Shown piece after piece: positions 3,495 to 42,135 of a stretch of DNA of 64,000 nucleotides. Both the position numbers and the translations under genes were made by a program. The notes beneath the pieces were generated by a model. It saw only the letters and a program-made list of their open reading frames with translations, made no database searches and was not told the origin of the DNA. The first letter of the stretch is position 1, and each line of letters begins with the position of its first letter. Source of the stretch: Patescibacteria group bacterium (GTDB lineage Bacteria; Patescibacteriota; Patescibacteriia; UBA1558; GWA2-36-10); NCBI GenBank assembly GCA_018062885.1, contig JAGORJ010000001.1, forward strand, positions 151-64,150. Reading direction: 5' to 3'.

Positions 3495-3501
3495 TCATCA
3501 A

Positions 3502-3576
<75 letters not shown>

Positions 3577-3582
3577 TTTTTC

Positions 3583-3606
3583 AGCCTTTTTGGCTGTTTT
3601 TATTTT
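3583..3606 (+). terminator. Rho-independent terminator after tRNA pair
   Basis: cagcc-tttt-tggctg hairpin followed by TTTTTATTTT. Confidence 0.5.
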
Positions 3607-3648
3607 GACTTTTCTTCATAATAATGGGAAAATATAGTTAATAAATTT

Positions 3649-4509: not shown

Positions 4510-4582
4510 TTCTTGACAAGCTCGAGTTCTCGACAAGCTCGAACACGAAGTTTTTATGTCTTCGAGCGAAGTCGAGAAGTTG
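4510..4582. repeat. GC-richer structured intergenic element: direct 14-bp repeat (cttgacaagctcga / ctcgacaagctcga) inside a long imperfect inverted repeat
   Basis: ttctcgacaagctcgaacacgaag ... cttcgagcgaagtcgagaag can form about 20 bp of imperfect stem; sits between mutM stop and the next gene. Confidence 0.4.
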
Positions 4583-4611
4583 AAATACTAATTATTTAAA
4601 TTTTTAATAGA

Positions 4612-5253
4612 ATGAAACTACACAAATTATATTATCTAAATCTATTGTTAATTTTATTGACAATAGGCATGGCAATTTATTTCTATCCACTCTTACCAGA
4701 CAAAGTCGCAACTCATTGGAACTTTGCGGGCGAGGTAGATGGCTGGGGATCCAAAAATTTCCAAGTATTTTTTCTTCCACTTTTGATTATCGGCATTTAT
4801 TTACTTTTTCAGATTTTGCCAAAACTTGATCCAAAGAAAACAAACTATGAACAATTTGCTACGGCTTACAAAATTTTTCAGTTGGTCTTGATGGTTTTTT
4901 TCGTGATTATCTTCTTGGTGACAAATCTAGCCAACACTGGCGTGGAGATAGCCGTTGGTACAGTCGTGAGTTCCGCGATTGGTTTGATGTTTATCATTTT
5001 TGGTATTTTGATGCCCAAACTAAAAAATAATTGGTTTATCGGCATCAGGACGCCCTGGACTTTGTCTAGTGACTTTGTCTGGCAAAAAACTCACCAGCTA
5101 GGCAAATATATGTTTATAGTAGCCGGTGCTTTGTTTCTTTTTATTAGCTATTTACCTTTGCCACTGGTCTTGCCAAGCTTTATTTTGTTGATCGTTTTGT
5201 TATTAGTGCCAGTTGTTTATTCTTACTTTTTGTTTAAAAATCAGTCAAAGTAA
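4612..5253 (+). CDS. SdpI/YhfL-family membrane protein
   Basis: 6 TM helices and NWFIGIRTPWTLSSDFVWQKTHQLGKY motif characteristic of the SdpI family. Confidence 0.55.
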   Translation: MKLHKLYYLNLLLILLTIGMAIYFYPLLPDKVATHWNFAGEVDGWGSKNFQVFFLPLLIIGIYLLFQILPKLDPKKTNYEQFATAYKIFQLVLMVFFVIIFLVTNLANTGVEIAVGTVVSSAIGLMFIIFGILMPKLKNNWFIGIRTPWTLSSDFVWQKTHQLGKYMFIVAGALFLFISYLPLPLVLPSFILLIVLLLVPVVYSYFLFKNQSK

Positions 5254-5276
5254 ATATTTTAGCTAAAATTAGCCTC

Positions 5277-5306
5277 AAAACCCTTAGTTTTCGCTAGGGG
5301 TTTTAT
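5277..5306. terminator. Bidirectional-type hairpin terminator
   Basis: aaaaccc...ggggtttt stem flanked by A-run and T-run. Confidence 0.5.
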
Positions 5307-5308
5307 GT

Positions 5309-5337
5309 TTGACAGAAAATGCATAATATGATATAAT
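5309..5337 (+). promoter_or_regulatory. Perfect-consensus sigma70-type promoter (TTGACA-N17-TATAAT) for the high-GC gene 5426-6802
   Basis: TTGACA at 5309-5314, 17-nt spacer, TATAAT at 5332-5337; GGAG RBS 8 nt before the ATG at 5426. Confidence 0.55.
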
Positions 5338-5425
5338 ACAATGATTTGAACTAATTGAGTTGAAAAACACTTGATTAGCGTACATTGAAATTTGAGAACG
5401 AGAACAAATAAAAGCGGAGTGGAAA

Positions 5426-6802
5426 ATGGAAAATTGGTTTCATGAGAGTCTGCCACAGTGGTTCTGGGTCGCTTGGCCCTGGATCAAGGCAGCTTCTTTG
5501 CCTTTACTGGCAGCGTTCATGTTCTTGACCATGTTCTGGAAGTTTCCGTTCATCCAGAAGCGCAAGCAGACCATGTTCTGGGGCGTACTTGCTCTGGCAC
5601 TGGTCGCAACCTTGTGTTTACGCTTTTTTGTCTTTCAGCCTGAATCTTCGGGTACTGAAAAGCAAACCGGCGTGACCAATGTCGTCCAGCAAGATCAGCA
5701 AACTCAGATGATTCAGAAACAAGAAGAAAAGGACTCAGACAAGGTAAACTGGTGGCCATTCTTTGCGGTTTTGTTCGGTCTGAGTTTCGGCGGTGTGCTG
5801 ATGTACAGATCTTGGACCGGTAAAATCTGGCAAGATGTGGCGGTCAATAGTACCTATTGGCAGGGGGTTGTTTTCGGTGGGTTTTTTTTGATAGGATCCT
5901 TGATTATGGGTTTCTGGCCCAATCTCTTGCACATCTGGATTCCTCTCCTTGCCCTGTCTATCGCTGGGTCTGCGATGTATTCCGTGCCTATTCGCACTGG
6001 CTGGGTATTCACCGCTTTCAATGACCCTGTGTCCCACAAAGGCACTGGTTTACGCTGGTGGTTTCCATTGCTGTTACCATTCATTGGTATAATTCCTTTG
6101 AAAATAGAGTTTCGTGAACGAAACATCAAAAAAACAAAGGAGTTTTCCACTAGAGTGGACAGTGCGTCGACGCCCGGTCCTGGTCCCAAGAATACCAAGG
6201 GCGCGCAAGTCTCTTATGAGCTGCAATATTGGTATCTGGCGAACAAAAATCCAGAAGCCTATTTGGAGATGTCAGATGAAGATCGTGCGGATCTTGACAA
6301 GGCTATTGAGAGTTCCTTGCAAGGTTTCATGGCAGAGGCTACCCGAGTTTCTACCTTGGACGAGGCCATGGATTATCAAGTGGTCTTTCCTCCTTACGAG
6401 GTCAAGAAGTCAGCTGCGATCTGTGCAAAAGAAAGGAAAGATCCTCTGTATGCGAAGTGGTTTGCGTTGGTTGATTTGATCTTGCACCGTTGTGGTTCTG
6501 AGGTGGTGCACTTGAAGATCATTGATCGCGATGCAGACGCTGAAACCATGGAGCAGATGCGTCAGCTGGCACTGATGGCCTATAAGCTCAGTATGGCGCA
6601 GAAAGAAAAGGAGATCAAAAAAACACAAGGTCAAGCGGAAGGTGATCAGCTTTCTGCTACCATTGAGGCTTTGAAGAAGACTGGTTTGACTGCTGAGCAA
6701 GCTGCTACGCAGGCCTTCCAGCGCCTCACTTTGCCTGAGTTGAAGGGTGCGATCATTTCTTTGGGTGTTGATTCACCCGGCATCATGGTGAACAGGCCCT
6801 AA
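5426..6802 (+). CDS. Hypothetical polytopic membrane protein with Trp-rich N-terminus and about 200-aa soluble C-terminal domain; compositionally foreign (about 52% GC)
   Basis: 458 aa, at least 5 TM segments, Gly/Pro linker STPGPGPKNTKG, then helical domain; GGAG RBS; GC far above neighbours. Confidence 0.6.
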   Translation: MENWFHESLPQWFWVAWPWIKAASLPLLAAFMFLTMFWKFPFIQKRKQTMFWGVLALALVATLCLRFFVFQPESSGTEKQTGVTNVVQQDQQTQMIQKQEEKDSDKVNWWPFFAVLFGLSFGGVLMYRSWTGKIWQDVAVNSTYWQGVVFGGFFLIGSLIMGFWPNLLHIWIPLLALSIAGSAMYSVPIRTGWVFTAFNDPVSHKGTGLRWWFPLLLPFIGIIPLKIEFRERNIKKTKEFSTRVDSASTPGPGPKNTKGAQVSYELQYWYLANKNPEAYLEMSDEDRADLDKAIESSLQGFMAEATRVSTLDEAMDYQVVFPPYEVKKSAAICAKERKDPLYAKWFALVDLILHRCGSEVVHLKIIDRDADAETMEQMRQLALMAYKLSMAQKEKEIKKTQGQAEGDQLSATIEALKKTGLTAEQAATQAFQRLTLPELKGAIISLGVDSPGIMVNRP

Positions 6803-6822
6803 TCTCGTTCTCGAAACCTAAA

Positions 6823-6873
6823 CCGCCCACCACAAAATCCAATTGGACTAGTGGTGAGGCGGCTTTTTTCTTT
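6823..6873 (+). terminator. Rho-independent terminator ending the high-GC cassette
   Basis: ccgcccaccac ... gtggtgaggcgg stem (loop contains its own palindrome tccaattgga) followed by CTTTTTTCTTT. Confidence 0.6.
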
Positions 6874-6882
6874 ACGCAAAAG

Positions 6883-7251
6883 TTGATTTATAGTATAATA
6901 AATCCATATTTAAAATCATTAAAAAATAAAATTATGATCAATGACATTATGTTAAATTTTGTCGATGAGCTTTTGCAAGAATCTGGTTTTTCTGGCGATT
7001 TAGGAAAACACACAGAGTATAAAGAAAATATTTTGAGCTTAGTTCAGCAAAGATTGGGTACTGAAATTATGAAGCTGATGAGCGCGGAACAACTTGAAGC
7101 TTATTTGGATTTGGTAGAGTCTAAGCCAAATGCTGAGCAATTGAGTGATTTTTTTCAAAAAAATATTCCTGAACTTGATCAAAAAGTGCAAGCTATTTTA
7201 GTTAGTTTTAAAAAAGATTTTTTGAATATTTTAGCAAGCGCTGGTCAATAA
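6883..7251 (+). CDS. Hypothetical small acidic protein (true start may be internal Met at MINDIMLNF)
   Basis: 122-aa ORF, low-GC native composition, no recognisable domain. Confidence 0.35.
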   Translation: MIYSIINPYLKSLKNKIMINDIMLNFVDELLQESGFSGDLGKHTEYKENILSLVQQRLGTEIMKLMSAEQLEAYLDLVESKPNAEQLSDFFQKNIPELDQKVQAILVSFKKDFLNILASAGQ

Positions 7252-7258
7252 TTTTGAT

Positions 7259-7426
7259 ATGACGAACAATGAAAAAATAGAGAGAATAAAAGAAGTTTAT
7301 CTAGATTTTTTGGCCCAGCTGCAAGAGCTCAAGGCTGATTCTAAACAACAGAATTTAGCGCGTATTCAGGCTATTGAAAAACAAGAGATAGATAAAATTT
7401 TAGATAAAATTCATAAAGATTTTTAA
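7259..7426 (+). CDS. Possible 55-aa helical small protein (below the ORF-track length cut-off)
   Basis: ATG...TAA ORF MTNNEKIERIKEVYLDFLAQLQELKADSKQQNLARIQAIEKQEIDKILDKIHKDF, heptad-like, fills the gap before the giant gene. Confidence 0.25.
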   Translation: MTNNEKIERIKEVYLDFLAQLQELKADSKQQNLARIQAIEKQEIDKILDKIHKDF

Positions 7427-7437
7427 ATTTTAAGTAT

Positions 7438-10400
7438 ATGGCGAATAAAAGAGATAGACGAGAAGGCGGGGAAGATCAAACTCCTGTACCAGAAGCAGAG
7501 GCTTCTTCTGCTCAATTAAGAGAATACGCTGAAACTACTGTAGCTGGTATGCGGCAAGCTCTTGAGGCTTTTAAACGTGCGGTTGAATTAGCGGCTAATA
7601 GCGCTTCTTTGATGGGAAAAGCAGAGAGATTATTTGCAAAAGCAGAACAGAAAATTAATGGTTTGGCTAGCACCATTCAAATAGATAATGTAAAAGATGG
7701 TTTTGTAGCTAACTTAAGTGGTTTAAAGGATAATGTGCTTGAAAATAATGAATCTAATAGAGATGAGTCTATTAATAATCCAGATGTACTTACTCTCAAA
7801 AAGTCTATTAGTGTTAATGAGGTATTAACAGAAGAAGAAAGAAATAATTTTTTAGGAGATATTAAACCAGACATGGATCAAGCTTCTTTAGAAGCGCTTG
7901 GTGCACGATTTTTTGTATTAGCACAAGAAAAATACAAAAATAAAATGCAGTCTTATTATGATAGCTTTATAAGTTCCAGGCCAACACTTAAAGATAGAGT
8001 CGCACAAACATTTATTAAATACAGCAGGGATTTATCAGTACAAACAACAGTTTTTGGTATGAGAAATATTTTTGCTCGTTTTGAAGAAGTGTTGCGAGAT
8101 TACTCTTCTGCTAGTCCATCCTCTCCAGATTCTCAGGAGTCAGGCAATAGCCTTCTGGCTCAAAAATTAACTCCAGACAATATTTTAGCTTCAGTTGAAA
8201 ACAATCAGCCTATTTATGTCAAAGTACATGTAGATGGTGGTGATTTGGAAACCGATTGGTTTGTTGAAAATATAAATATAGATACGCAAAAAGTTTTTGT
8301 TAGTAAAAAAAATGGGGATGATATTTCTAGTAAATGGTTTGATGTTGATGATTTACTCAAGTGGGATTTAGAAGTTGATGAATCTAATCATGGTGATACG
8401 CCTGAATCAGAGCCAAGTTCAGAAGATATCTCAAAAGAGAAAACGGAACTAATTAAAAAAGCGGCTGAGGAATTAGACGCTACCTCTGATTCTTTGAGAG
8501 CTGATGATTATGGTATTAATGCTGAAAAGGCAGCAGATTTAGTTAGTAGTAGTATTGAAAAAATTCAAAATCTTGACCATAATTTGACTATCAACGAATT
8601 AAATCAAGCCATTACAGAAATTAATAGTAGTTTAGATGTAAACTTGGAAGCATTAAAAGTTTCGTTAATAGACCCCAAAGAAGTTCCATCTGGCGCAGCA
8701 GAAGAGCCAGTAGAGACACCAGCCCCAGAAGATCCTGTCTTATCTACTGAACAAACTCCAGAGGTGCAACAAGAAAAATTAAAACTTGTTGATATCAAGC
8801 CAGAAAAAATTAAGGAGATTTTAGAAAGCGCTAATGTTGTTGCTCAGCTAAAAGATTTATTACTTCAAAAAGAAGGTGCTGGTTCAGCAGGCTTACAAGA
8901 AAGTATTGTTGAAGTTTTACAAAATTATTTTACCGAACAAAATTTAAATTTAAACTCAGAAGCACAGGAAAATTTGAAGGCAATGATTGAAAATCTAGCC
9001 GCAGAAACCTCTGAGCAAGTCACTCAAGCTTTTGCTAGCTCTTTGGAACAGCAGGCTAAAATTGATTCGGGTTGGTTTGATAAAGTCAAACAACATATGT
9101 CTGCTTTGATGGGTGCTAGATTAGCTACCACCTTTGCCATTGGTATTGGCGCAACTGCTTTAGCGCCAGTTATAGCTCCTATGTTAGGCATGGCAGCTGT
9201 TGGTTGGGGTACGGTTGGCCTTGCTGGTGGTATAGCGGGTTTAGGTAGATATTTTGGTAATAAAATTTTTACTAAATTTCAGAAGTCTGAAAAAAATATT
9301 AATAAATTAAAATCAAAAGAAGAAGAAAAAATAGAGCAAAGAAAAGCGGTTTTACTAGAAGAAAACTTTATAAATGTTGATTCTTTGGCAGCTGTAATGG
9401 CTAACACCTTAAGAACAAGCACTTCAGAAGATTTTCGTACTGGTCAAATCTTAGATAGTGAAGGTAATTTTTCTGAAGAAGTTGCTGAAACTTTGAAAGC
9501 AAATATTCAAAATTTACTGGATAATGATCCGCGTTATGTTGGTTTAAGTCCAGAGGAAAAAATACTAAAAGCAAAACAACTCTTTACTATTTTGTCCATG
9601 GAGCTTATTCAGCAAAGTAGAAATATTTTTGATTTAGATAAAGACAAAGAAGATCCTGCTATGATCAAAGCTATGCAAAAGTTGCAAAGTGTGTTGTCTG
9701 GAAAAATTGAAGGAATAGACAAACTAAATGTTGATAATGATTTTGCACAAGCAGGCGCAGCTGCTTTGGTGGGTGCTGGTTTAAGAGTTGCTTATACTCA
9801 CAGTGCACTTGCAGCTTCAGCAACTTCAGCTTTGTCTGGTGCTTTGATGGGCTGGTCTTTAGCTTCGGCTGAAGCAAAGCATTCTATGCAAGAACAATAT
9901 TATAAGGATGTTGAGGAAATCTTAGATTTAGGCGAGAGTATGCTTAGTGATGTCGTTTCTAATAAAAATTTTGAAAATAAAAATGGAGAGTGGAAGCAAA
10001 AAAAATACATAGATTTAGAAAATAAGGTTATTCCTGTAAAATCAATGCTATCTTTAAAGCTTGGTGATAATTATATTCTCACAGACCCGGTACTTCGAGC
10101 TAGGGCAGAAAATTTTATTCATCAATTTGGTCAATATAAAACTCTTGAGATGAAGATTGAGGGTACCCGTATTTATGATCTTGATCAAAATCAACTCTTA
10201 AAAAATTTACAGAAGAATATAAATTCAAAAAATGACCATTCTGTAGAAGAAATAGCTAGAAACCAAAAATGGGATCAGCGTTTTACTAACTTGTTTAGGT
10301 ATTCTGCTACACTCACTGGCGCAGCTATTGGTGGAATTATTGGTTTTGCCTCTGGAGGGTCAATGGAGTCAGCTGAAAATAACACAGGGTCTTCTGCTCA

Positions 10401-12327
10401 AGAAACAAATACTGCGGACTCTTTAAGTGTAGCTTCACAAGATTCTACAAAAGTTTCGGCAGATAGCTTGAAGCAGTTTACGGAAAATCCAGCAGATTCC
10501 ACAGCAACAGAAGCATCTGATGTTGTAAATAATGCAAATGTAACAGAAAATTCTGGTTCTGCTTCAGTGTCGGGAAATTCTCCGGATCAAGCTGCTACAA
10601 CTGTGATTGGTACACATGAAGTTATTACCACAAAGACCGGCACTTTAGAAAATGTTATTCGTACAGAAGATGGTATGCAAGGCAATGATTCTATCTGGCG
10701 TTCTACCAAAGATATAATCAAAAGTGACCCAGAAAAATTCGGCTACACCGGTGATCATGATGATCTTGGAGCTATCTCAAAATTTGCAGAAGCCAAAACT
10801 GCTAGTTTAGTGAATCAGCTTGAGCAAGCACAAGGTGGTGATTTAGCTGATTTGGTACATAATGGTGATAAGGTGATTGTAAGTTTTGAGGATGGTAAGC
10901 CCGTTTTAAGCTTTGAAGATAGTTCTGGTATAAAAGCTGGTCATTTGCCTGATTTTACAGCCAAGACAGAAATACCAAGTCCAGAAACGATAATGCCTGA
11001 AACACCTTTGGTTCCAGAAGCTCCAGTATTACCAGTGGTGAATGCAGACGAGTTCTTTGGTGGTAAAATTGCTTATTCTGCTGATTTATTTAAAGAAGTG
11101 GCTGATAAGCCAGAAATTTTGAATCAAGTGGCAGAAAAAGTTTTTGAAAATGGCTCGCCAGAAGTACAGAAACAATTTTTACATGATTTGTATCCAGATT
11201 CTTTTATGGATAATACAAATAAAGCATCAGTATTTTTGCACTATGTGGAAAATGCACCAGATATTAGTGTGAAAGATTTAGACAGCGTCAAAGATTTAGA
11301 TACCTGGGTAAATAATTTTGATGCACAAGCTAATAGTGATGATTTACCAGGCAAAAATTGGGAAGTTAGATTATTGACTGATGATAAAGGTAAGACATTT
11401 TATGCTATGGTGCATGAAAGTAAAAATCGTCTTTTTGCTCAAGATGAATTTGAAGTCAATAATCTCAGTGGTGAAATTTTCAAACTAAAAGAAAAGGTTT
11501 TAGAAAACTGGCTTCAAAATTCAGAAAACAATTTAGTGCCAGCAGCAGAAGAATTACCACCTACAACGACCGCACCTGAAACTCCAGTTGCTCCAATTGA
11601 GCCGATTATTGAAGCTCCAGATACCAATGCTAATGAAGCACAAGGATTATCTAGTGAAGATTCAGCTACATCAGAAAATATACCAAGTTCAGGTAGGGTG
11701 GATGATATCCGGTTAGAGGGTGGCCAAACTCTAAATTTTAATTATGATGAGTCTGGTAAGGTGACTGGGATTGGTCTGGGGGGTGAAATTTCTGGTGAGC
11801 CTGAAGTATTAAGAGGTGATTTTCGTGCTATTTTGAGAATGAAGCTTGGTAATCTTAGGCCAGGTGACATCAGTGTGGTGTCGCAAGTTGCTCGAAAAGT
11901 TGATTTACAAATGGATTTTTTGAATAATTTAGTAGAAAATGGTAAAGCTGATACTCCAGAAGCAGAGTTCTTGGCTGATAGAATCTTGAAAGATGTTGCT
12001 GAAGTCGAAAAGAAATATGGCGATGTGTTTAAAGACATTAAAACGGAGGCTGATGGTAAATTAAGTTTTGTGGAGACTGTTCCAGAAGCTGCGCCCACAG
12101 CGCCAATCGAGACTCCAGTTGAAGCTCCAATAGAAACAGAAATATCGACTGGTGGTGGCGCTAATTTTAAGATTTTATCTCAAATGCAGGAAAACGCTAA
12201 ATTCTATGACACACAGGATAATGTATTTACCAAAATAGACGGTAAAATATTTAGAGCCGATCCTTTTGGTGAAATGACTATTGAGGTGAGGGGTCAAAAA
12301 GATTTAGATAATTTATATCAAAAATAA
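7438..12327 (+). CDS. Giant (1629 aa) acidic low-complexity protein with internal glycine-zipper TM hairpins and PExP-rich linkers
   Basis: No signal peptide; about 12% Asp+Glu; hydrophobic Gly/Ala-rich segments (ATTFAIGIGATALAPVIAPMLGMAAVGWGTVGLAGGIAGLG; AGAAALVGAGL...SGALMGWSLA; LTGAAIGGIIGFASGG); repeated P-E-x-P/APIE motifs. Confidence 0.7.
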   Translation: MANKRDRREGGEDQTPVPEAEASSAQLREYAETTVAGMRQALEAFKRAVELAANSASLMGKAERLFAKAEQKINGLASTIQIDNVKDGFVANLSGLKDNVLENNESNRDESINNPDVLTLKKSISVNEVLTEEERNNFLGDIKPDMDQASLEALGARFFVLAQEKYKNKMQSYYDSFISSRPTLKDRVAQTFIKYSRDLSVQTTVFGMRNIFARFEEVLRDYSSASPSSPDSQESGNSLLAQKLTPDNILASVENNQPIYVKVHVDGGDLETDWFVENINIDTQKVFVSKKNGDDISSKWFDVDDLLKWDLEVDESNHGDTPESEPSSEDISKEKTELIKKAAEELDATSDSLRADDYGINAEKAADLVSSSIEKIQNLDHNLTINELNQAITEINSSLDVNLEALKVSLIDPKEVPSGAAEEPVETPAPEDPVLSTEQTPEVQQEKLKLVDIKPEKIKEILESANVVAQLKDLLLQKEGAGSAGLQESIVEVLQNYFTEQNLNLNSEAQENLKAMIENLAAETSEQVTQAFASSLEQQAKIDSGWFDKVKQHMSALMGARLATTFAIGIGATALAPVIAPMLGMAAVGWGTVGLAGGIAGLGRYFGNKIFTKFQKSEKNINKLKSKEEEKIEQRKAVLLEENFINVDSLAAVMANTLRTSTSEDFRTGQILDSEGNFSEEVAETLKANIQNLLDNDPRYVGLSPEEKILKAKQLFTILSMELIQQSRNIFDLDKDKEDPAMIKAMQKLQSVLSGKIEGIDKLNVDNDFAQAGAAALVGAGLRVAYTHSALAASATSALSGALMGWSLASAEAKHSMQEQYYKDVEEILDLGESMLSDVVSNKNFENKNGEWKQKKYIDLENKVIPVKSMLSLKLGDNYILTDPVLRARAENFIHQFGQYKTLEMKIEGTRIYDLDQNQLLKNLQKNINSKNDHSVEEIARNQKWDQRFTNLFRYSATLTGAAIGGIIGFASGGSMESAENNTGSSAQETNTADSLSVASQDSTKVSADSLKQFTENPADSTATEASDVVNNANVTENSGSASVSGNSPDQAATTVIGTHEVITTKTGTLENVIRTEDGMQGNDSIWRSTKDIIKSDPEKFGYTGDHDDLGAISKFAEAKTASLVNQLEQAQGGDLADLVHNGDKVIVSFEDGKPVLSFEDSSGIKAGHLPDFTAKTEIPSPETIMPETPLVPEAPVLPVVNADEFFGGKIAYSADLFKEVADKPEILNQVAEKVFENGSPEVQKQFLHDLYPDSFMDNTNKASVFLHYVENAPDISVKDLDSVKDLDTWVNNFDAQANSDDLPGKNWEVRLLTDDKGKTFYAMVHESKNRLFAQDEFEVNNLSGEIFKLKEKVLENWLQNSENNLVPAAEELPPTTTAPETPVAPIEPIIEAPDTNANEAQGLSSEDSATSENIPSSGRVDDIRLEGGQTLNFNYDESGKVTGIGLGGEISGEPEVLRGDFRAILRMKLGNLRPGDISVVSQVARKVDLQMDFLNNLVENGKADTPEAEFLADRILKDVAEVEKKYGDVFKDIKTEADGKLSFVETVPEAAPTAPIETPVEAPIETEISTGGGANFKILSQMQENAKFYDTQDNVFTKIDGKIFRADPFGEMTIEVRGQKDLDNLYQK

Positions 12328-12355
12328 CCATTCGACTTCGCTCAGGATGACATGA

Positions 12356-12382
12356 AAATACCTGCTATTATGCGGGTATTTT
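12356..12382 (+). terminator. Terminator for the giant gene
   Basis: atacctgc-tatta-gcgggtat hairpin followed by TTTGATT. Confidence 0.45.
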
Positions 12383-12406
12383 GATTAAAGATAAATAAAA
12401 AAAGAA

Positions 12407-12436
12407 CCCGCCAAATCACTGCTGTGACTTGGCGGG
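12407..12436 (-). terminator. GC-rich terminator for minus-strand gene 12462-13394
   Basis: cccgccaa...ttggcggg stem; on the minus strand it is followed by TTTTTTTATTT. Confidence 0.55.
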
Positions 12437-12461
12437 CTTGCGCAATGCGCGACGGAAGGTT

Positions 12462-13394
12462 CTAGTGTCGGTGTGGGCGGGGCATGGCGCCGCGTTTGGA
12501 TTTCTCCTTTGCGGGCTGCTGCTCCGTTGTTGGTAAGGCGCTGAGTGAGATTTGCTCCGTGACGGGTTTTGGTACCGTCAAGGTTTGGATGAAGTCAAAG
12601 TACTGCACTACGCCGTGCTTGACTTTCATCTGCTCCCAGCGTTTGCCGCGAGTGGTGCTCAGTTGCTCATCGACGGCAGCGAGCCCGGTGTTTAGCAAGG
12701 TATTCATTGTGTCTTGCATACACCAGAGTTCGCTGTTTCTTGTTTCAGAGTTTATGAACTCACCGCGCCCGACGAATCCGTTCATGTCGATTGGCGTAGG
12801 CGTCCAGTCCTTGTTCTCCAAGACCTGGAGTCTCCCATCAAGCTCCTTGTCCTTCTCTTCCAGGGCCAGCAAGCGCTGGGCGTTGGGGGAGTTGGCCATG
12901 ATCTGGGCGATCATCGGCCGACTGTCTTGCTTGCTGTTGACGACTCGTTCAATCGCTCGACTCAATGAATCTACTTGGGCAGGAGTGTAGCCATTGACTG
13001 CAGTGTAGCCAGCAGATCCAAGAGCTGCATACATCGCACGACGTCCCATCCATTGGATATGGTTGGATTGCTGTGCGGCAGCGGTAGTAAACTTCGGGTA
13101 CCAGCATACCCGGTTGTCCTCGATCTTGCAGTCGCCCTTGTAATAGACTGTGTCCCCATTGGACACCTCAAATGTCAGGCGGTACTGCTTGATCGGCTGG
13201 CCCTTATTGTTCCATTTCACCAGCCATGGGGCCATCTCGGGCTTGGTTGGGGCCCAGCTGGCCATGGTGGCGGAGCTGTCGGGGTTGGTTTTGGTCAGGT
13301 TGCTGTCGTCGGCGTCTGCCTGGCTGATGTTGCTCGTGATGAGCGTCATGATGGCGATGAGAGCCATCCAAATGTACGAAGTGTGATTCTTCAT
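12462..13394 (-). CDS. Secreted protein of unknown function, high-GC (about 55%); probable start at second Met (MKNHTSYIW)
   Basis: ORF track gives 12462-13415; GGAAGGAAG RBS precedes the Met at 13394; signal peptide IWMALIAIMTLITSNISQADA; coiled-coil LLALEEKDKELDGRLQVLE. Confidence 0.6.
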   Translation of the reverse strand: MKNHTSYIWMALIAIMTLITSNISQADADDSNLTKTNPDSSATMASWAPTKPEMAPWLVKWNNKGQPIKQYRLTFEVSNGDTVYYKGDCKIEDNRVCWYPKFTTAAAQQSNHIQWMGRRAMYAALGSAGYTAVNGYTPAQVDSLSRAIERVVNSKQDSRPMIAQIMANSPNAQRLLALEEKDKELDGRLQVLENKDWTPTPIDMNGFVGRGEFINSETRNSELWCMQDTMNTLLNTGLAAVDEQLSTTRGKRWEQMKVKHGVVQYFDFIQTLTVPKPVTEQISLSALPTTEQQPAKEKSKRGAMPRPHRH

Positions 13395-13483
13395 GGGTCT
13401 TCCTTCCGTTCTCATATTTTTGGGCTAAAAGCCCGTTTGTGTAGGTGCGATTCGGCTAGAAACAGATTCTAGCTTGACTAAGT

Positions 13484-13512
13484 ATTATATACTATTTTAA
13501 AACATTTGTCAA
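13484..13512 (-). promoter_or_regulatory. Perfect-consensus TTGACA-N17-TATAAT promoter on minus strand driving 12462-13394
   Basis: rc of 13507-13512 is TTGACA, rc of 13484-13489 is TATAAT, 17-nt spacer. Confidence 0.5.
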
Positions 13513-13562
13513 GGATTTTTGGAACCGTCTAGTTTTGTTAGGCTTTTTGTAAAAATATAAGA

Positions 13563-13591
13563 TTGACAGATTTTGATTTTTAGTGTATGAT
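13563..13591 (+). promoter_or_regulatory. Near-consensus TTGACA-N17-TATGAT promoter driving 13682-14680
   Basis: TTGACA 13563-13568, 17-nt spacer, TATGAT 13586-13591; divergent from the preceding promoter. Confidence 0.5.
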
Positions 13592-13681
13592 AATAAATCA
13601 AACAATTTTGCCTTACAAGGCATTTGTTTGCTCGATCTTCGACAAAATCATCACACAAAAAGCATATCAATGGGGGAAAGC

Positions 13682-14680
13682 ATGAAAAACGCGATGTTGG
13701 GACTCATTTTTGGCCTTTTGGCCATGCTCCAGTTCGCTTCGGCAGCTGAAAAGGTGGGAACGTCTTTTCTTAATCGTTCTGATCTTGAGGTTTGGGGCAC
13801 CAGTCAGTTGGTTACCACTTTCGAGGGAGACAGTCTGGCGAGAAACAAATGGTCCTATGCTATTTTTGGTGCCGAGCTCTGGATCAACGGCCGTCAGTCC
13901 TTGGATGTCTTCTCGATCAAGGCTGAAGGACAGCTGGCCTATGGCATCAAGGCCGAGAATCTGCTGACAGAGGCTTTTGCTCAGCAAGATTGGCGTCAGG
14001 CTTCAGGTCTGGGTGCCAGTTTTCGAGCTGGACAGTACCAGCATTTGAGCAGGGCAAACTTCGCTCTTCCGCATGAAGCTGCTCTGCCTCGTCGGATGGA
14101 CGTGGAAGTGCCCTTTACCGAGAATCTCTCGGGCGGAGCATTTTCCGCCTACTGGGATCAACAGGATACGCTCAAGATTCCTGCTGGTTTCAAAATGAGC
14201 TGGGGCTTTGGTAAGTCCAGGCCGATGCCACAGCAGAGCTGGGACACGCTATTAGTAGCGTTTCCGGAACCGCGGTGGAGCTGGGGAGCTGCATACCACA
14301 TCACAGGGTATTTTGGGGCCACAGAGCTCCATCTGGGCTGGGAAAAGGAAGTGGGGCACAATGCTTCGCTTTATATTGCCCCCCATGTAAATGTGGACTT
14401 GGGCTTGAGCTGGACCTACAGTTTTCACCCACACTCCGAAATTGCGCCGGACAATCTCTACGCAGCCAAGCTCAGCTGGAGATTCTGGCAGTCGCAAACC
14501 GAGAAGCACAGCTTCTCGGTGGTCAGTGGCCTGGATTTCGGAGACCAAACCGAAGCCTTGCAAGCCTTGTTGGGCTATCAGTGGAAGCTGCCCATCGAAG
14601 GTTTCGTGAAGCTTCAGGCGGGTTATGATGGTCGCTATGAGCAGCCGGTGGTTGCTCTGCGTTACTATCTGAGACTGTGA
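13682..14680 (+). CDS. Secreted beta-strand-rich protein, outer-membrane beta-barrel-like, high-GC (about 57%); start at internal Met (MKNAMLGLIF)
   Basis: ORF track 13583-14680; GGGGGAAAG RBS before the ATG at 13682; signal peptide LAMLQFASAAEK; alternating hydrophobic/polar strands through the C-terminus (LSWRFW, SFSVVSGLDFG, LLGYQWKL, VVALRYYLRL). Confidence 0.55.
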   Translation: MKNAMLGLIFGLLAMLQFASAAEKVGTSFLNRSDLEVWGTSQLVTTFEGDSLARNKWSYAIFGAELWINGRQSLDVFSIKAEGQLAYGIKAENLLTEAFAQQDWRQASGLGASFRAGQYQHLSRANFALPHEAALPRRMDVEVPFTENLSGGAFSAYWDQQDTLKIPAGFKMSWGFGKSRPMPQQSWDTLLVAFPEPRWSWGAAYHITGYFGATELHLGWEKEVGHNASLYIAPHVNVDLGLSWTYSFHPHSEIAPDNLYAAKLSWRFWQSQTEKHSFSVVSGLDFGDQTEALQALLGYQWKLPIEGFVKLQAGYDGRYEQPVVALRYYLRL

Positions 14681-14700
14681 ATGTGTGATTCGATGAATTC

Positions 14701-14740
14701 AGCGGCGGGAACCTTTGGGATCCCGCCGCTTTCTTTTTTG
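14701..14740 (+). terminator. Strong GC-rich rho-independent terminator closing the high-GC island
   Basis: agcggcggga / tcccgccgct perfect 10-bp stem followed by TTCTTTTTTG. Confidence 0.65.
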
Positions 14741-14836
14741 TCCAAAATTGCTTAAAATATAGGTGTAAAGGGATGGGCTTTAAAAATCTTGACATTTATT
14801 TAAAAATGTGTTATTTTAATATGATATCTAAACAAT

Positions 14837-16369
14837 ATGTTTGATAATTTAGAACAAAAAAATATTCCTGAAAAAGCCAAAACTGGCCCTGAAAAATGGC
14901 AAGATTTTTGGCTTCCAAGCGAAAACAACGATTATCACCCACATTCACTGCAATTTAGACGCATGTTCTTTTATGCAAGTACTGCTGTATTGATGAAAGT
15001 GATTGTGGCTCTTTTTGTGGTTGCCCTGCCTATTACGGCTTGGTTGACACCGGATATTTTGACCCAAGAAAGTAAAAAGATAGTCTCCTTGACCAATGAT
15101 TTAAGACAAAGTCTCAATGTGCCCGTTTTGACAGAAAATCAGACTTTAAACCTTGCTGCCTATGGCAAGGCTGAAGATATGTTGTTACAACAATACTTTG
15201 CCCATATTGGTCCAGATGGCAAGAGAGTGTCTAGTTGGCTAAAGGATTTGGGATATGACTATTATATGGCTGGGGAAAACTTGGCTATGGGCTTTGCTTC
15301 AGCTGAAGAAGTGGTTGAGGCTTGGAAAAATAGTCCTACTCATTATGCTAACTTAGTTGACCCAAGTTTTACGGAAATTGGTGTCAGTATGCTCAGTGGA
15401 GAATATAATGGCATGGACACAAGCTTGGTAGCCCAGATGTTTGCTTATCCAAAAATCGTGGTGGTAGCTGATGAGATTGTAGTGCCAGCTCCAGAAAATC
15501 AAGTACCAACACCAGAAGTAGTGGAAACTCCAAAGCCAGTAGAAACTAAGATTATCCAAGCTACTAAAGTTCCTGTAACTCCAAAACCTGTTGTTGTTCA
15601 GACTCAAAATTCAGCTCCAGTTGTAGAAGTAGTAGAAAATCAACCGGCAAATGATTTGAAAAATGCCAACCTTGTTAGTGAAGAAAATATTGTTATTTCA
15701 GCCGGCATTGAAACGCCTGAGGAAACAGTAGTAGATTTATTAGAACCAAAAGAGGATTTAGTTTTAGAAAACGTAGAAGCTAATAATACAAGAGAGGAGA
15801 TTGTGACGCTTTCTGAGACTAATGAACTTGTGACAGATGTGACGCCACCTGAAGTGGATTTATTAAAAACAAAAATTATCATTGATCAGCCGGATAACAA
15901 GGCGGAGGCAATCATCAAGATAGATGCTTACCTAAGTCTTGATACACAAGAAGTTTTTGTTTCTTGGGCAGGAGAAAAAATTAGTCTGGCAAATGTTGGT
16001 GATGGTCATTGGGTGGCTTATGCTACTTTGACAGCTGAACAAGCCGACAAAATTTTGAATCCAATTATTTTGCCAAATATTACGGCGATTGATGCGTTTG
16101 CTAATAAAAGTGTAGTGGATTTAGGTCTTGAACAAATCAAGCCAGTTAAAACTTCTTTGCTTAATCAGTATTTTTTCCTCAAAAAAATCAATGCAGATGG
16201 AGCAGGAACTTTGTTTAATATTTCAATCATTTATTATAAAATTTTTGCTTTACTGTTGAGTATTGCTTTGGCTCTGAATATTTTTGTTCATATCAAAAAG
16301 CAAAATTATAGAGTAATTGGTTCAGCGGCAATGTTTTTGATTTTATTAGCCCTGTTAATCATTTTTTAA
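14837..16369 (+). CDS. CAP/SCP (PR-1-like, YkwD-type) domain protein with N- and C-terminal TM anchors and Pro/Val-rich linker
   Basis: CAP core NLAAYGKAEDMLLQQYFAH...GENLAMGF...AWKNSPTHYANLVDPSFTEIGV; PTPEVVETPKPVETK linker; C-terminal hydrophobic helix. Confidence 0.75.
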   Translation: MFDNLEQKNIPEKAKTGPEKWQDFWLPSENNDYHPHSLQFRRMFFYASTAVLMKVIVALFVVALPITAWLTPDILTQESKKIVSLTNDLRQSLNVPVLTENQTLNLAAYGKAEDMLLQQYFAHIGPDGKRVSSWLKDLGYDYYMAGENLAMGFASAEEVVEAWKNSPTHYANLVDPSFTEIGVSMLSGEYNGMDTSLVAQMFAYPKIVVVADEIVVPAPENQVPTPEVVETPKPVETKIIQATKVPVTPKPVVVQTQNSAPVVEVVENQPANDLKNANLVSEENIVISAGIETPEETVVDLLEPKEDLVLENVEANNTREEIVTLSETNELVTDVTPPEVDLLKTKIIIDQPDNKAEAIIKIDAYLSLDTQEVFVSWAGEKISLANVGDGHWVAYATLTAEQADKILNPIILPNITAIDAFANKSVVDLGLEQIKPVKTSLLNQYFFLKKINADGAGTLFNISIIYYKIFALLLSIALALNIFVHIKKQNYRVIGSAAMFLILLALLIIF

Positions 16370-16402: not shown

Positions 16403-19354
16403 ATGAAGAAAATAATCAGTGTTATTACTATCAGTAGTTTAATTTTCAGCGCCAGCATGAGCTATACTTTGCCAGCTTTGGCTATGGGTGTAGAAGTTGC
16501 AGAAAAAGGCGTTGATCTTATCTCTGATCAAATTAAAGAAAATATTAAGGATGGCCCTAGTGTGCCTGGCATCTCAGATTCTAGTGGCGCTAGCTCGTCT
16601 TCTAGTAAAAATAAGGCTAATGCGCGCAATCAAAGGCCTGTATTAGAAAGCATTGCTTTCAAAATGTCACCAGAACAAATGTCCGATGATCCAAGTGATT
16701 GGCAAACTTTGTATGGTAACTTAAGTAGAGGATTTTTTATTAATATTCCTACCAGTAGTTTTCATTATGGCTATCAGTTTATAAAAATCTCTGACAGTAG
16801 TGTAAATACTGGCATTGCCTCTGGCAGTCATCCTTTTACTTTGATTTCTGCTCCAGCTGCTTTTGATACTTATTATCAAGCCTCAGATCCGATGCATGCA
16901 ATCGCCAATGGTGAAGCGCCGATATTTTATATGCGCTCCCATGATGATAATTCATTGAGCTTGCTCAATGGTTTGAACAGTCAAAGACATTGGAGAATAG
17001 GTAGTACTTGGCCAGCTGGTGAGTACAGAGTTTCTGGTCGTTTGATGGGTGAAAATGGTTTAGACAGTGAGCCTATCATTATGTCATTTTTCATTTCTCA
17101 CAATGATGACAATGGTGATCATAATTATGTGCCTGAAACAGTTGTGGATAACTATACAGTAGCATCTGGCGCTTTACTAAATGTTAATGTAGCTAATGGC
17201 ATTTTATCTAATGATATTGATTTAGACGGTCCAGATGAATTAATAGCCTTAAGAACTAGTATTGTTGATGGTTTGGAGACTGAAGATTTATTGCACGGTA
17301 GATTTAATCTACGCGCCGACGGTAGTTTTGCTTACCAGTCAGTAGATGGTTTTGCTGGTACTGCGGTATTTTATTATCGAGCTTTTGATGGGCAAGATTC
17401 TTCTCGAACAACCATTGTGACTATCAATGTCACAGCTACAGACTCCAATCAAGAACCGATAGCAGTAGAAGATTCTTATACAGTACGATCTGGTTCTTTG
17501 TTAAATCTTACTGAAGATAATGGTGTTTTATCAAATGACATTGATTTAGATGGTCCAAATGATTTAACAGCTAAAAGAACTAGTATAGTTATTGGCATTG
17601 ATCCTATCCCAGATTTATTGCACGGTAAATTCACTTTCCGTTCAGATGGTAGCTTTGCTTACACATCAGTAGATGGTTTTGTCGGTGTAGCTAAATTTTG
17701 GTACAAAGCTTTTGATGGTGAAGATTATTCTCGAGCAACTTTAGTGACTATCAATGTCACAGCCTCAGACGCAAATCAAGCGCCATTGGCCGTCACAGAT
17801 TCTTATTCAGTACGATCTGGTTCTTTGTTAAATCTTACTGAAGATAATGGTGTTTTATCAAATGACATTGATTTAGATGGTCCAAATGATTTAACAGCTA
17901 AAAGAACTAGCATAGTTATTGGCATTGATCCTATCCCAGATTTATTGCACGGTAAATTCACTTTCCGTTCAGATGGTAGCTTTGCTTACACATCAGTAGA
18001 TGGTTTTGTCGGTGTAGCTAAATTTTGGTACAAAGCTTTTGATGGTGAAGATTATTCTCGAGCAACTTTAGTGACTATCAATGTCACAGCCTCAAGCTCA
18101 AATCAAGCGCCGGTAGCTGTAGCTGATACTTATGAAACTGTAAATAACAGTGACTTAAATGTTTCAGTTGCTAGTGGAGTTTTAGTAAATGATACAGACA
18201 ACGAGCATCAAGCTTTAAGAGCGGTTTTAAATACCACGGTGTCTAACGGTGTCTTGACTTTAAATTCAGATGGCTCGTTTAATTATAATGCCACTGATGG
18301 TTTTGTTGGTAATGATGTCTTTACTTATCGTGCTTTTGATGGCGCTTTGTACTCAGAGATTGTTAATGTGAGCATCAATGTCACAGCTCCATCAAGTGGT
18401 GGTGGCGGCGGAGGAGGCGGCGGCGGATCTACACGTAATCCTCGTAATGCCAATATTGTCATCAACAATAACGCCGTTTCTACCAATACTGTTTCGGTCA
18501 ATTTGACTTTATCAGCTGACAATATGATCGCTACTTATGCACCTTTAGAAATGCGTATTAGTAATTTTTCCAACTTTAATAACGCTTCTTGGCGTCCTTA
18601 TGCCACAACTACTTCTTGGACTTTATTGAGTGGTAATGGCAACAAAACTGTGTATGCTCAGTTCAAAAATAAAAGAGGTGTAAGCAGCAATGTTTCTGAC
18701 AGTATTCAGCTTATCGCTGGTCAAGTTTTGGGCGACAGAGATTGTAGTGGAGTTGGCGGTAGTTTGTTCTCTTTGTTAAATCGTAAAGATGCAACTGTTT
18801 ATTATATCAGCTCAGATTGTAAAAAACACGCTTTCCCTGATCCAAAAACTTATTACACTTGGTATAATGATTTTAGCAAGGTTGTTAAAGTGACACCTAG
18901 TGAATTAGATTTATATTTAGAAGGTAATGTTATCTCTTATCGTCCAGGTATCAAGCTGGTGAAAACAGTGGATACAAATAGAGTTTATGCCGTTGAGCCT
19001 GATGGCGTTTTGCGTCATATCACTTCTCCAGCTATGGCTAGAGCTTTATATGGTGATAATTGGCAAAATTTAGTACAAGATGTTATCACTGGTTATTTTG
19101 CTACTACCTATACTAAAGGATCTTCTTTGAATGATTTATTACCTACAGGTACTTTAGCTAAAGAGCCTGATAATGATACTATCTACTATGTCCAAAATGG
19201 TCAGAAGCGTCCTTTCTCTAGCTTGGCTGCCTTTAATGCCAACTATTTCCGTATGAAAGATGTGATAATTAAAAATAGTTTAGCAAATTATGGCGTGGGT
19301 TCTACTATTAATCGTTTTGATGCTTCATTGTTGCCTTACCCATTGATTAACTAA
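16403..19354 (+). CDS. Secreted 983-aa surface adhesin-like protein with 5 tandem about 100-aa Ig-like/cadherin-like ('tandem-95' type) repeats, poly-Gly linker and C-terminal repeated module
   Basis: Signal peptide; repeats of V-x-D-x-Y-x-V...GVLSNDIDLDGP...GSFAY-x-SVDGF-x-G...AFDG...INVTA; GGGGGGGGGG at aa 666-675. Confidence 0.75.
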   Translation: MKKIISVITISSLIFSASMSYTLPALAMGVEVAEKGVDLISDQIKENIKDGPSVPGISDSSGASSSSSKNKANARNQRPVLESIAFKMSPEQMSDDPSDWQTLYGNLSRGFFINIPTSSFHYGYQFIKISDSSVNTGIASGSHPFTLISAPAAFDTYYQASDPMHAIANGEAPIFYMRSHDDNSLSLLNGLNSQRHWRIGSTWPAGEYRVSGRLMGENGLDSEPIIMSFFISHNDDNGDHNYVPETVVDNYTVASGALLNVNVANGILSNDIDLDGPDELIALRTSIVDGLETEDLLHGRFNLRADGSFAYQSVDGFAGTAVFYYRAFDGQDSSRTTIVTINVTATDSNQEPIAVEDSYTVRSGSLLNLTEDNGVLSNDIDLDGPNDLTAKRTSIVIGIDPIPDLLHGKFTFRSDGSFAYTSVDGFVGVAKFWYKAFDGEDYSRATLVTINVTASDANQAPLAVTDSYSVRSGSLLNLTEDNGVLSNDIDLDGPNDLTAKRTSIVIGIDPIPDLLHGKFTFRSDGSFAYTSVDGFVGVAKFWYKAFDGEDYSRATLVTINVTASSSNQAPVAVADTYETVNNSDLNVSVASGVLVNDTDNEHQALRAVLNTTVSNGVLTLNSDGSFNYNATDGFVGNDVFTYRAFDGALYSEIVNVSINVTAPSSGGGGGGGGGGSTRNPRNANIVINNNAVSTNTVSVNLTLSADNMIATYAPLEMRISNFSNFNNASWRPYATTTSWTLLSGNGNKTVYAQFKNKRGVSSNVSDSIQLIAGQVLGDRDCSGVGGSLFSLLNRKDATVYYISSDCKKHAFPDPKTYYTWYNDFSKVVKVTPSELDLYLEGNVISYRPGIKLVKTVDTNRVYAVEPDGVLRHITSPAMARALYGDNWQNLVQDVITGYFATTYTKGSSLNDLLPTGTLAKEPDNDTIYYVQNGQKRPFSSLAAFNANYFRMKDVIIKNSLANYGVGSTINRFDASLLPYPLIN
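17471..18094 (+). repeat. Near-identical tandem direct DNA repeat, period 327 bp, two copies, inside the adhesin gene
   Basis: 17471-17767 and 17798-18094 differ at only a few positions and encode identical 99-aa Ig-like modules. Confidence 0.8.
18398..18427 (+). repeat. (GGN)10 simple-sequence tract encoding Gly10
   Basis: ggtggtggcggcggaggaggcggcggcgga in frame with the adhesin. Confidence 0.8.
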
Positions 19355-36282: not shown

Positions 36283-36316
36283 GAAAAAAGGGGCGTCCGT
36301 TGGGCGCCCCTTTTGA
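36283..36316. terminator. Bidirectional GC-rich terminator between pyrG (+) and 36336-36761 (-)
   Basis: ggggcg-tccgttgg-cgcccc hairpin flanked by A-run and TTTT. Confidence 0.6.
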
Positions 36317-36335
36317 GTTTGTGTGCCGTTGTTGG

Positions 36336-36761
36336 CTATGCCTTAAGCTTATGCAACAAGAACATAGCGATGGAAAATGCTGGCTTTTCCATCACCCCCG
36401 CATACATGAAGCTTGGGCCTTCCTTGAGACAAACAAATTCCTCCTGGTCATGCAATCTGTTTATCACTGAAAGATGTATCTCTCTTTCGTAAATCGTATC
36501 GCGTCCCGGGTTCACATCGAGTGTGATAATAGAGTGCTCGCCCAGAAGCGTTTGAATGGGATGCCCGGTAGCTAAGGCGACGATTTTCATTAACAACCCC
36601 TGTACATGACTGTGGTCTGCTACGTGCAAACGAAAGGTGGTCACAGTGGAGTTGGCGTGGTACTTGCCTTCTGAGTTTAGCTCAGAAAGAACGCCGTAAA
36701 AGGTAATGGTGTGTGCCATGATACTCATCCTCCTCGTTTCATGGTATGTCTTGAAGAGCAT
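36336..36761 (-). CDS. Hypothetical small protein, higher-GC (about 47%); probable true start at MAHTITF (36719) 9 nt after AGGAGG
   Basis: ORF track start 36761; perfect AGGAGG SD sits 9 nt before the in-frame ATG at 36719; no recognised domain. Confidence 0.5.
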   Translation of the reverse strand: MLFKTYHETRRMSIMAHTITFYGVLSELNSEGKYHANSTVTTFRLHVADHSHVQGLLMKIVALATGHPIQTLLGEHSIITLDVNPGRDTIYEREIHLSVINRLHDQEEFVCLKEGPSFMYAGVMEKPAFSIAMFLLHKLKA

Positions 36762-36786
36762 ATCAGCACTTGCTGATAATCGTATT

Positions 36787-36815
36787 ATAATAGAATATAT
36801 ATGCTATTTTGTCAA
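36787..36815 (-). promoter_or_regulatory. Strong TTGACA-N17-TATTAT promoter (minus strand) for 36336-36761
   Basis: rc of 36810-36815 is TTGACA; rc of 36787-36792 is TATTAT; 17-nt spacer. Confidence 0.45.
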
Positions 36816-42128: not shown

Positions 42129-42135
42129 ATTTTAA

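Follow-up and report, generated by a model that had tools for sequence, protein, structure and literature searches.

An apparently old pair of GC-rich, strongly promoted genes for probable exported proteins in an AT-rich genome of the candidate phyla radiation

The 64,000-nucleotide stretch analysed here (the window; positions 151 to 64,150 of contig JAGORJ010000001.1, assembly GCA_018062885.1) comes from the metagenome-assembled genome of a Patescibacteria group bacterium, which belongs to the candidate phyla radiation (CPR). It contains an island, 12330-14745, whose guanine-plus-cytosine (GC) content is 51.2%, compared with 36.7% for the whole window and 36.1% for the window outside the island. 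The island consists of two divergent genes, here called A and B, each monocistronic, and the excess lies in their coding sequences (CDSs): A is 55.3% GC and B 53.2%, while the 266-bp intergenic region that holds both promoters is only 32.7%. GC at third codon positions (GC3) is 0.70 in A and 0.60 in B, against about 0.30 typical, and it exceeds 0.5 in just three of the 51 long open reading frames (ORFs) of the window, namely A, B and a gene that we call U. An earlier, sequence-only reading of this DNA had put the island at 55-57% GC, a figure that suits the coding parts in 200-nt windows (0.53-0.58) and is slightly too high for B. The parts of the two units are these, SD standing for Shine-Dalgarno sequence.

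12405..12438, minus strand: intrinsic terminator of A (hairpin 12407-12436), a 15-bp GC-rich stem and a U-run; -26.6 kcal/mol, z -6.0
12462-13394, minus strand: gene A (KBC40_00070), 310 aa from the ATG at 13394, after the SD GGAAGGAAG
12790..13341, minus strand: hypervariable (mosaic) segment of gene A, with no blastn match to the close relative L007, the flanks being 93-94% identical
13455..13473, minus strand: 5'-proximal hairpin of the A transcript (GCTAGAA-N5-TTCTAGC)
13484..13512, minus strand: promoter of A, TTGACA-N17-TATAAT, 12/12 to the sigma-70 consensus
13563..13591, plus strand: promoter of B, TTGACA-N17-TATGAT, 11/12 to the sigma-70 consensus
13599..13630, plus strand: 5'-proximal hairpin of the B transcript (CAAACAA..TGCCT..AGGCA..TTGTTTG); -12.9 kcal/mol, z -3.8
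13682-14680, plus strand: gene B (KBC40_00075), 332 aa plus stop from the ATG at 13682, after the SD GGGGGAAAG
14701..14740, plus strand: intrinsic terminator of B (hairpin 14701-14730, then a T-run); -26.2 kcal/mol, z -4.5

The longest ORF of A runs over 12462-13415, and the SD favours the ATG at 13394 over a start at 13415. The database start of B, a GTG at 13583 that gives 365 aa, falls inside B's own -10 element, and since the SD-backed ATG is at 13682 we regard the public start as an annotation error. ORFs and domain matches confirm that the island sits between a giant 1629-aa ORF upstream and a CAP-domain gene followed by a cadherin/Big_9 adhesin gene downstream.

Both genes are strongly promoted. 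The divergent near-consensus promoters and the GC-rich terminators that the sequence-only reading had picked out were recovered, the former by a scan and the latter by folding, with the scores listed above. In the whole 64 kb only two promoter matches are perfect, those owned by U and A; at one mismatch or fewer there are eight matches against 1.0 expected, a count that none of 100 shuffles reached. In the related lineages (numbered L001 and so on), both hexamers of the A promoter equal the consensus in all seven where the pattern was found, with a variant -10 in L011, and the -35 hexamer of B is invariant across eight. The 5' hairpin of the A transcript is found in six of the seven lineages with a locatable A promoter, with a different sequence in L009, and at the position of the B hairpin seven of eight lineages have a stable hairpin, made from at least four unrelated sequences. 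In these hairpins it is the structure that is conserved rather than the sequence. A 16-nt inverted repeat, with arms at 13535-13550 and 13655-13670 that are 88% complementary and 104 nt apart, flanks the B promoter and 5' untranslated region (UTR).

Units rich in GC and in RNA structure, with strong promoters and terminators, look like large structured RNAs when they stand in an AT-rich genome, and one could suppose that the two stretches are large structured non-coding RNAs, or that the island is an assembly chimera, a possibility that the sequence-only reading had also raised. We find this scarcely credible. No Rfam family matches the A or B stretches, and the two genes evolve as coding sequence does: the ratio of nonsynonymous to synonymous divergence (dN/dS) across relatives is 0.15-0.26 for B and about 0.4-0.5 for A, as under purifying selection; the periodicity of GC over codon positions is the same in all orthologs (in A, GC3 > GC1 > GC2); and the ORFs stay open across lineages, with in-frame indels, SD sequences and predicted signal peptides. 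From dN/dS, codon-position periodicity and in-frame indels we conclude that A and B are real protein genes, and we rejected the non-coding RNA. The chimera is excluded because the same gene arrangement occurs in at least ten independent assemblies.

The unusual composition of the pair is maintained over deep divergence. In all lineages GC3 is 0.61-0.82 for A and 0.53-0.66 for B, compared with 0.19-0.30 for flanking genes, and synonymous sites are saturated between most lineages, with a synonymous divergence (dS) that for B is 1.4 or more, or could not be calculated. Saturation combined with stable GC3 implies that GC3 is near equilibrium under a gene-specific force, and is not a foreign residue. 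The shift is present in every synonymous family (among Lys codons the share of AAG climbs from 17% to 62-77%, and among Leu codons CTG goes from 5% to ~30%), codons ending in G rise as much as those ending in C in all codon families, and the amino-acid composition is also pulled toward GC-rich codons. Because every family is affected, the shift is not specific to particular tRNAs; the tRNA-adapted codon bias of strongly expressed genes was rejected as the sole cause on the parallel rise of the two codon classes and because the type IV pilin genes of the window are not GC-rich. Finally, the excess stops at coding boundaries and skips the giant gene (GC3 0.22), which lies between U and A. The force must therefore act on particular genes, since intergenic DNA and the giant gene remain AT-rich.

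The same CDSs are more structured as RNA than their composition demands. Measured against synonymous shuffles, which keep the protein, the codon usage and GC3, the folding of the native sequence has a z of -5.2 for A, -4.2 for B and -6.4 for U, with values of -1.6 to -6.4 in six orthologs, while the control genes CAP, Dus and MreB give -0.7 to -1.4 in the same test. This surplus of structure is spread diffusely and is greater on the sense strand; discrete long inverted repeats were considered as its source and were not found. The long-term upkeep of GC-rich, over-structured, strongly promoted cassettes in an AT-rich CPR genome is the most robust and the least expected result of this analysis.

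Relatives of the two proteins are few. Among 5.8 billion clustered sequences there are nine clusters of B and five of A, and an exhaustive profile search with B of 1.84 billion representatives gave four real clusters. Two giant-protein matches to B, P0018 and P0019, were discarded as MBG/fn3 repeat proteins whose scores are summed weak repeat matches. Every member with usable flanks (L001, L003-5, L007, L009-13 and L028) lies in one conserved CPR neighbourhood of cell-surface character, whose genes follow each other in a fixed order: DUF5663, then a gene of 55 aa, the giant protein, A (minus), B (plus), CAP, the cadherin-like adhesin, Dus, CorA and DivIC. This order recurs in Candidatus Nomurabacteria HK-STAS-PATE-4 (842-kb contig) and in the 2015 CPR genome LBRC01, where B is only ~30% identical, and the A-B pair is syntenic in every synteny-keeping relative, down to 28-31% identity. 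As judged by these searches, A and B are tiny families confined to one Nomurabacteria-type CPR clade, old and vertically inherited.

The edges of this distribution are informative. The distant CAP-bearing CPR contigs L016 and L018 (about 2300-6800) carry TIM, FBA and a membrane/TPR gene, after which CAP comes within ~1.7 kb, and lack the block that matches 3041-14837 of the window, which comprises two tRNAs and the genes Fpg, SdpI, U and DUF5663, followed by the 55-aa gene, the giant gene, A and B. Since the whole Fpg-to-B block is missing there, the module is clade-specific. In the window, the left edge of this block holds tRNA-Tyr and tRNA-Thr (3409-3576). In none of the relatives compared do the giant gene and CAP flank a strict empty site. 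In L034 (5347-6864), a single 505-aa protein stands in place of the pair between the giant gene and CAP, with no separate A; behind a signal peptide come an extension of 220 aa, in which TDQQSLRDAVSxNT is repeated in tandem, and a B domain, and its GC3 is only 0.39. It may be a fusion; the match of the extension to A by hhalign was not significant (E 0.15).

Another GC-rich gene directly upstream of CAP in AT-rich CPR was seen in L020 (3131-6673) and L029 (2102-5572). It encodes a lipoprotein-like surface protein of ~1,160-1,180 aa with Bact_surface_Ig-like domains, and has a GC3 of 0.55-0.60 against 0.19-0.33; the two genes are homologous to each other and not to A, B or U. As for the neighbours in the window, the giant protein (7438-12327, plus strand) is fast-evolving, with 73% identity to L007, a dN/dS of 0.35-0.69 and the low GC3 of 0.22; its one transmembrane-like segment lies near residue 570, and it matches no Pfam domain significantly. 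The adhesin gene (16403-19354) contains internal repeats of ~330 nt (17139-18133) that code for cadherin/Big_9 domains, and blastn cross-matches indicate that the copies are arranged differently in the window and in L001.

These data bear directly on the origin proposed by the sequence-only reading, in which the island was acquired from a Gram-negative donor, possibly a host bacterium. In its full form this explanation holds that the donor was GC-rich and that B is an ordinary outer-membrane porin. The composition and codon usage are indeed atypical with respect to the flanks, with GC3 at 0.60-0.70 against ~0.30 and amino acids shifted as well; each cassette is complete in itself, having a promoter and a terminator of its own; the model of B described below is porin-like; and the absence of the Fpg-to-B block from L016 and L018 would be compatible with an acquisition long ago, when the clade arose. 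At the same time, no homolog outside the CPR clade was found in the 1.84 billion representatives, the 5.8 billion clustered sequences, PDB, Pfam, NCBIfam, phages, plasmids or IMG/VR, the pair is syntenic and its promoters are conserved throughout the clade, and the GC3 excess persists past synonymous saturation, where amelioration should have erased it. There is no integrase or transposase in 10-17.5 kb and there are no direct repeats within 12400-14750, the interval to which that search was limited. Relatives of A or B are likewise absent from INPHARED phages, PLSDB plasmids, IMG/VR and the PADLOC defence models, and PHROGs gave only matches at E > 0.01; a phage, plasmid, moron or defence origin was rejected on these grounds. 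Overall, families limited to one clade, conserved synteny and GC without amelioration largely refute recent transfer, and we regard import from a Gram-negative donor as very improbable. Homologs confined to monoderm CPR thus dispose of the transfer idea, while the idea of a barrel survives them.

Alleles have also moved at this locus. Against L001 the dS of B is 1.46 and that of Dus and CAP 0.5-0.6, and against L007 the dS of B is 0.13 and that of the giant gene 0.52. Compared with L007, A is unchanged over its C-terminal ~100 residues (100% identity to P0011), whereas its N-terminal two-thirds is only ~35% identical, without any nucleotide match. The discord between B and its flanks, together with the replaced N-terminal segment of A, leads us to conclude that alleles of the locus have been exchanged among lineages, and the alignments indicate that A carries a replaceable variable module. 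It could then be argued that the pair is the same CPR pair, but that its GC arises incidentally, from GC-biased gene conversion at a hotspot of recombination, and that its products are surface antigens under diversifying selection, with no membrane barrel. Divergence that disagrees with the flanks in both directions, the mosaic A and a uniform shift over codon families and amino acids, as a fixation bias would give, all fit this explanation. However, the anomaly is coding-only, and spares both intergenic DNA and the fast-evolving giant gene; gene conversion does not predict sense-strand RNA structure beyond composition; and B, with a dN/dS of 0.15, is conserved. A rise in GC3 of 0.3-0.5 is, moreover, far above the effect reported for gene conversion in bacteria. 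We therefore consider this explanation improbable. Because alleles are exchanged here, GC-biased gene conversion is a possible contributor and might add to the GC; it leaves the coding-only restriction and the sense-strand structure unexplained.

A and B are not the only units of this design in the window, where two further cassettes were found.

5309..6868, plus strand: cassette of gene U, with a 12/12 promoter at 5309-5337 that has an extended -10 TG, and a terminator at ~6823-6862
5426-6802, plus strand: CDS of gene U, 458 aa, GC3 0.55, with its own 5' UTR and SD
36285..36815, minus strand: fourth cassette, with an 11/12 promoter at 36815-36787, the SD GAGGAGG and a GC-rich strong terminator

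The U protein is Trp-rich; it has at least four transmembrane-like segments in its N-terminal half, and its C-terminal half is soluble. Orthologs of U in L005, L009 and L011 are likewise GC-rich, and U could be part of one system with A and B. The fourth cassette has an immediate 5' hairpin (ATCAGCA-AG-TGCTGAT) and a 127-aa ORF (36719-36336) with a GC3 of 0.57 and no signal peptide; the ORF has no Pfam match and the cassette no Rfam family. A promoter of at least 11/12 precedes 15 of 20 GC3-outlier genes and 20 of 265 others, though these are mostly orthologs and so not independent.

What, then, do the two genes encode? Read from their sequences, both products begin with Sec signal peptides, as had been proposed: MKNAMLGLIFGLLAMLQFASA followed by AEK in B, where the signal is kept in all family members, and MKNHTSYIWMALIAIMTLITSNISQADA followed by DD in A. 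The proposal that B has amphipathic beta periodicity was also borne out, with a beta-amphipathic moment at z = 4.0 against shuffles and a dominant hydrophobic period of 2.03-2.2 residues; the mature protein has no transmembrane helix. An AlphaFold2 model of B consists almost entirely of long beta-hairpins, with 14-16 strands of 8-12 residues (predicted local distance difference test score, pLDDT, 43.7; predicted template modelling score, pTM, 0.44), and each of the predicted strands, of which there are at least 14, has two distinct faces, one of them clearly hydrophobic and the other clearly polar. Two methods return as structural neighbours transmembrane barrels in every case, with no sandwich among them, at Foldseek TM-scores of 0.3-0.38 and 5-13% sequence identity in the structural alignments. 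Within the family, the predicted strands are largely spared by indels (7 of 29 fall in them, with 14.4 expected; p 0.005). B ends in ...ALRYYLRL and its relatives in ...YYWRP with 0-6 further residues, and the final strand is amphipathic. These observations give moderate support to the view that B is most likely a porin-like beta-barrel of 14-16 strands, hydrophobic outside and with a polar lumen.

The sequence-only reading had gone further, to an outer-membrane barrel like those of diderms. Of that claim, the barrel fold keeps moderate support: B shows no similarity to outer-membrane protein families and has no aromatic beta-signal, and the porins and other transmembrane barrels that Foldseek returned come at low TM-scores. 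Such a barrel would be as unexpected in this cell as had been said, for the literature treats CPR as devoid of an outer membrane and of porins (PMC7906910; 10.1101/2021.05.31.446380). B might instead be a secreted soluble beta-rich protein (a sandwich, a jelly-roll or a lectin-like adhesin) or an S-layer subunit, the AlphaFold barrel being an artefact of a shallow alignment. Low pLDDT and low TM-scores, the missing beta-signal, the lack of a gene of the beta-barrel assembly machinery (BAM) in the window, imaging that shows CPR cells without an outer membrane (PMC7906910) and adhesin-like neighbours would all suit a soluble B. At least 14 strands of 8-12 residues with hydrophobic and polar faces, the uniformly transmembrane neighbours by two methods and the avoidance of the strands by indels would not, and we judge a soluble B unlikely, though a contender that deserves real weight.

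Protein A begins with the putative signal peptide. Its N-terminal two-thirds is hypervariable, its helical C-terminal part is conserved, and it closes with a basic, Pro-rich tail that ends in AMPRPxRx, in which the AMPxP motif is invariant. Its AlphaFold2 model is of very low confidence (pLDDT 41.9, pTM 0.20) and shows a small beta-rich variable region with helices at 105-273. The PDB matches of A are non-significant only, to designed coiled coils over residues 169-195.

Overall, we hold with middling confidence that A and B are an old inherited CPR gene pair set in high-output, stable-mRNA cassettes for major envelope proteins. Each gene would be an autonomous high-output unit, with a frozen near-consensus promoter, a protective 5' stem-loop, a strong SD, a structured GC-rich CDS and a strong terminator. 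The GC-rich, structured CDSs most likely reflect selection for stable, long-lived transcripts, which would let a cell with few polymerases and ribosomes make much protein. Both products would be exported through Sec, with A mainly helical, its N-terminal part changing fast and recombining and its C-terminal part constant, and A and B, perhaps with the membrane protein U, could be abundant structural parts of the envelope or of a periodic surface layer. A and B would act as partners. The sequence-only reading had offered, as its other possibility, an undescribed envelope or host-interaction module, and this we retain as the best reading, with the envelope as the proposed location.

Several observations weigh against it. 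The type IV pilin genes, for which strong expression would be expected, have a GC3 of only 0.21-0.26, so high expression alone does not explain the GC; these are three consecutive genes with type IV pilin N-methylation motifs at 41451-43388 (plus strand). The protein of the fourth cassette has no signal peptide, and the cassette design is for that reason not specific to the envelope. Polarised synonymous changes, which in the comparison with L007 and L001 number only 22 and are underpowered, run 14 from G or C to A or T and 8 the other way; small as the counts are, this ratio is nearer balance than the ~4.5:1 expected with unopposed AT pressure. In the folding comparison, the shuffle control breaks codon-boundary dinucleotides too, and all control genes are AT-rich. 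As for the proteins, both AlphaFold models are of low confidence and the TM-scores of B are low, as given above, and alternating hydrophobicity alone suits soluble beta-sandwiches as well. B has no match in Pfam, NCBIfam or PDB, either as a single sequence or as an 11-sequence profile, even at E <= 10; it lacks the canonical C-terminal aromatic beta-signal that BamA recognises; and neither BamA nor any other outer-membrane gene is present in the 64-kb window. A has no significant match in Pfam (none at E <= 1), NCBIfam or PDB; it lacks SLH and any other domain that could anchor it, and a crude heptad scan gave no clear signal.

A bolder version, which we think rather unlikely, is that B is a true membrane barrel in a cell without BAM or a conventional outer membrane, and that it either forms a toga-like sheath with A or serves as a feeding pore in the outer membrane of a host, the GC-rich CDSs being an undescribed stable-mRNA strategy. 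In CPR such a sheath would either survive from a diderm-type envelope or reinvent one, and it would give the periodic surface layer a molecular identity. In the feeding-pore version, B would enter the outer membrane of its Gram-negative host unaided, and the hypervariable part of A would set host specificity. AT-rich, ribosome-poor cells would thereby make a few very stable mRNAs.

Regardless of which reading holds, the locus speaks to the envelope of these cells. By cryo-transmission electron microscopy CPR cells show periodic surface layers and no outer membrane, and are attached to Gram-negative hosts (PMC7906910). Their envelope structure has been called unclear and the composition of the surface layer unknown (PMC5220378; PMC7906910); with the composition of the CPR envelope thus open, a predicted barrel and a helical partner are concrete candidates. 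In the clade of Chloroflexi, CPR and Dormibacteraeota, porins and SLH domains are reported to have been lost (10.1101/2021.05.31.446380), and a barrel in such a porin-losing monoderm clade would, if true, bear on how outer membranes are lost and rebuilt and on assembly without BamA. An inherited GC excess of 20 points, with GC3 up to 0.82, is a clean counter-example to the detection of transfer by composition. Consensus promoters, 5' hairpins and over-structured CDSs, in turn, suggest a gene-specific strategy of mRNA longevity in minimal cells.

The cassettes preferred here have partial parallels elsewhere. The E. coli ompA gene, with its 5' stem-loop, and the S-layer genes of Lactobacillus and Caulobacter have long-lived mRNAs with a stabiliser in the 5' UTR. 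Like A and B, they are monocistronic and very strongly promoted, open their 5' UTR with a stem-loop and end at a strong terminator, and their product is exported, structural and abundant, as is proposed for A and B; what sets A and B apart is that the whole CDS is also GC-high and over-structured against an AT-biased genome, and is kept so across deep divergence. Prophage morons are autonomous promoter-gene-terminator units of atypical composition, and A and B resemble them in being self-contained transcription units with a composition unlike that of adjacent genes. However, A and B have neither a prophage context nor viral homologs, and their stable chromosomal position and vertical inheritance mean that their composition does not come from recent transfer.

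The best structural neighbours of the B model are the porins OmpC, OmpF and OmpK36, the Rhodobacter porin and the Occ/OprD family. Likeness to porins extends to ~310 mature residues, a predicted Sec signal and, in the model, 14-16 long amphipathic strands with partly alternating short and long connections. B differs from them in its identity of only 5-13%, in the lack of any Pfam, NCBIfam or PDB profile match, in its non-aromatic C-terminus, and in belonging to a family found in one CPR clade, in a presumed monoderm. The second comparison is with the helical Omp-alpha and the barrel Omp-beta of the Thermotoga toga (PMC10160955), and with the tethers SlpA and OmpM, each a single chain, of diderm Terrabacteria (10.1101/2021.05.31.446380; PMC10628300). 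A and B share no sequence or profile similarity with these systems, and A lacks an SLH domain or a demonstrable long coiled coil; A and B form divergent monocistronic units and not an operon as in the Omp-alpha/Omp-beta case, and B is without a canonical beta-signal. Thermotogae have BamA, whereas CPR are reported without an outer membrane and BamA. Membership of B in the porin superfamily, or of the pair in the OmpM/Omp-alpha type, is thus not established, the tests of sequence similarity, beta-signal and SLH domain having failed. There are also points in common: in those systems, as in the predicted A-B pair, a barrel adjoins a helical exported partner that varies in sequence and keeps its architecture, both components are proposed to be abundant in the envelope, and the systems occur in Terrabacteria-affiliated lineages without lipopolysaccharide. 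In all lineages with the pair, A and B are adjacent and divergent, much as tether systems pair a barrel with a helical component.

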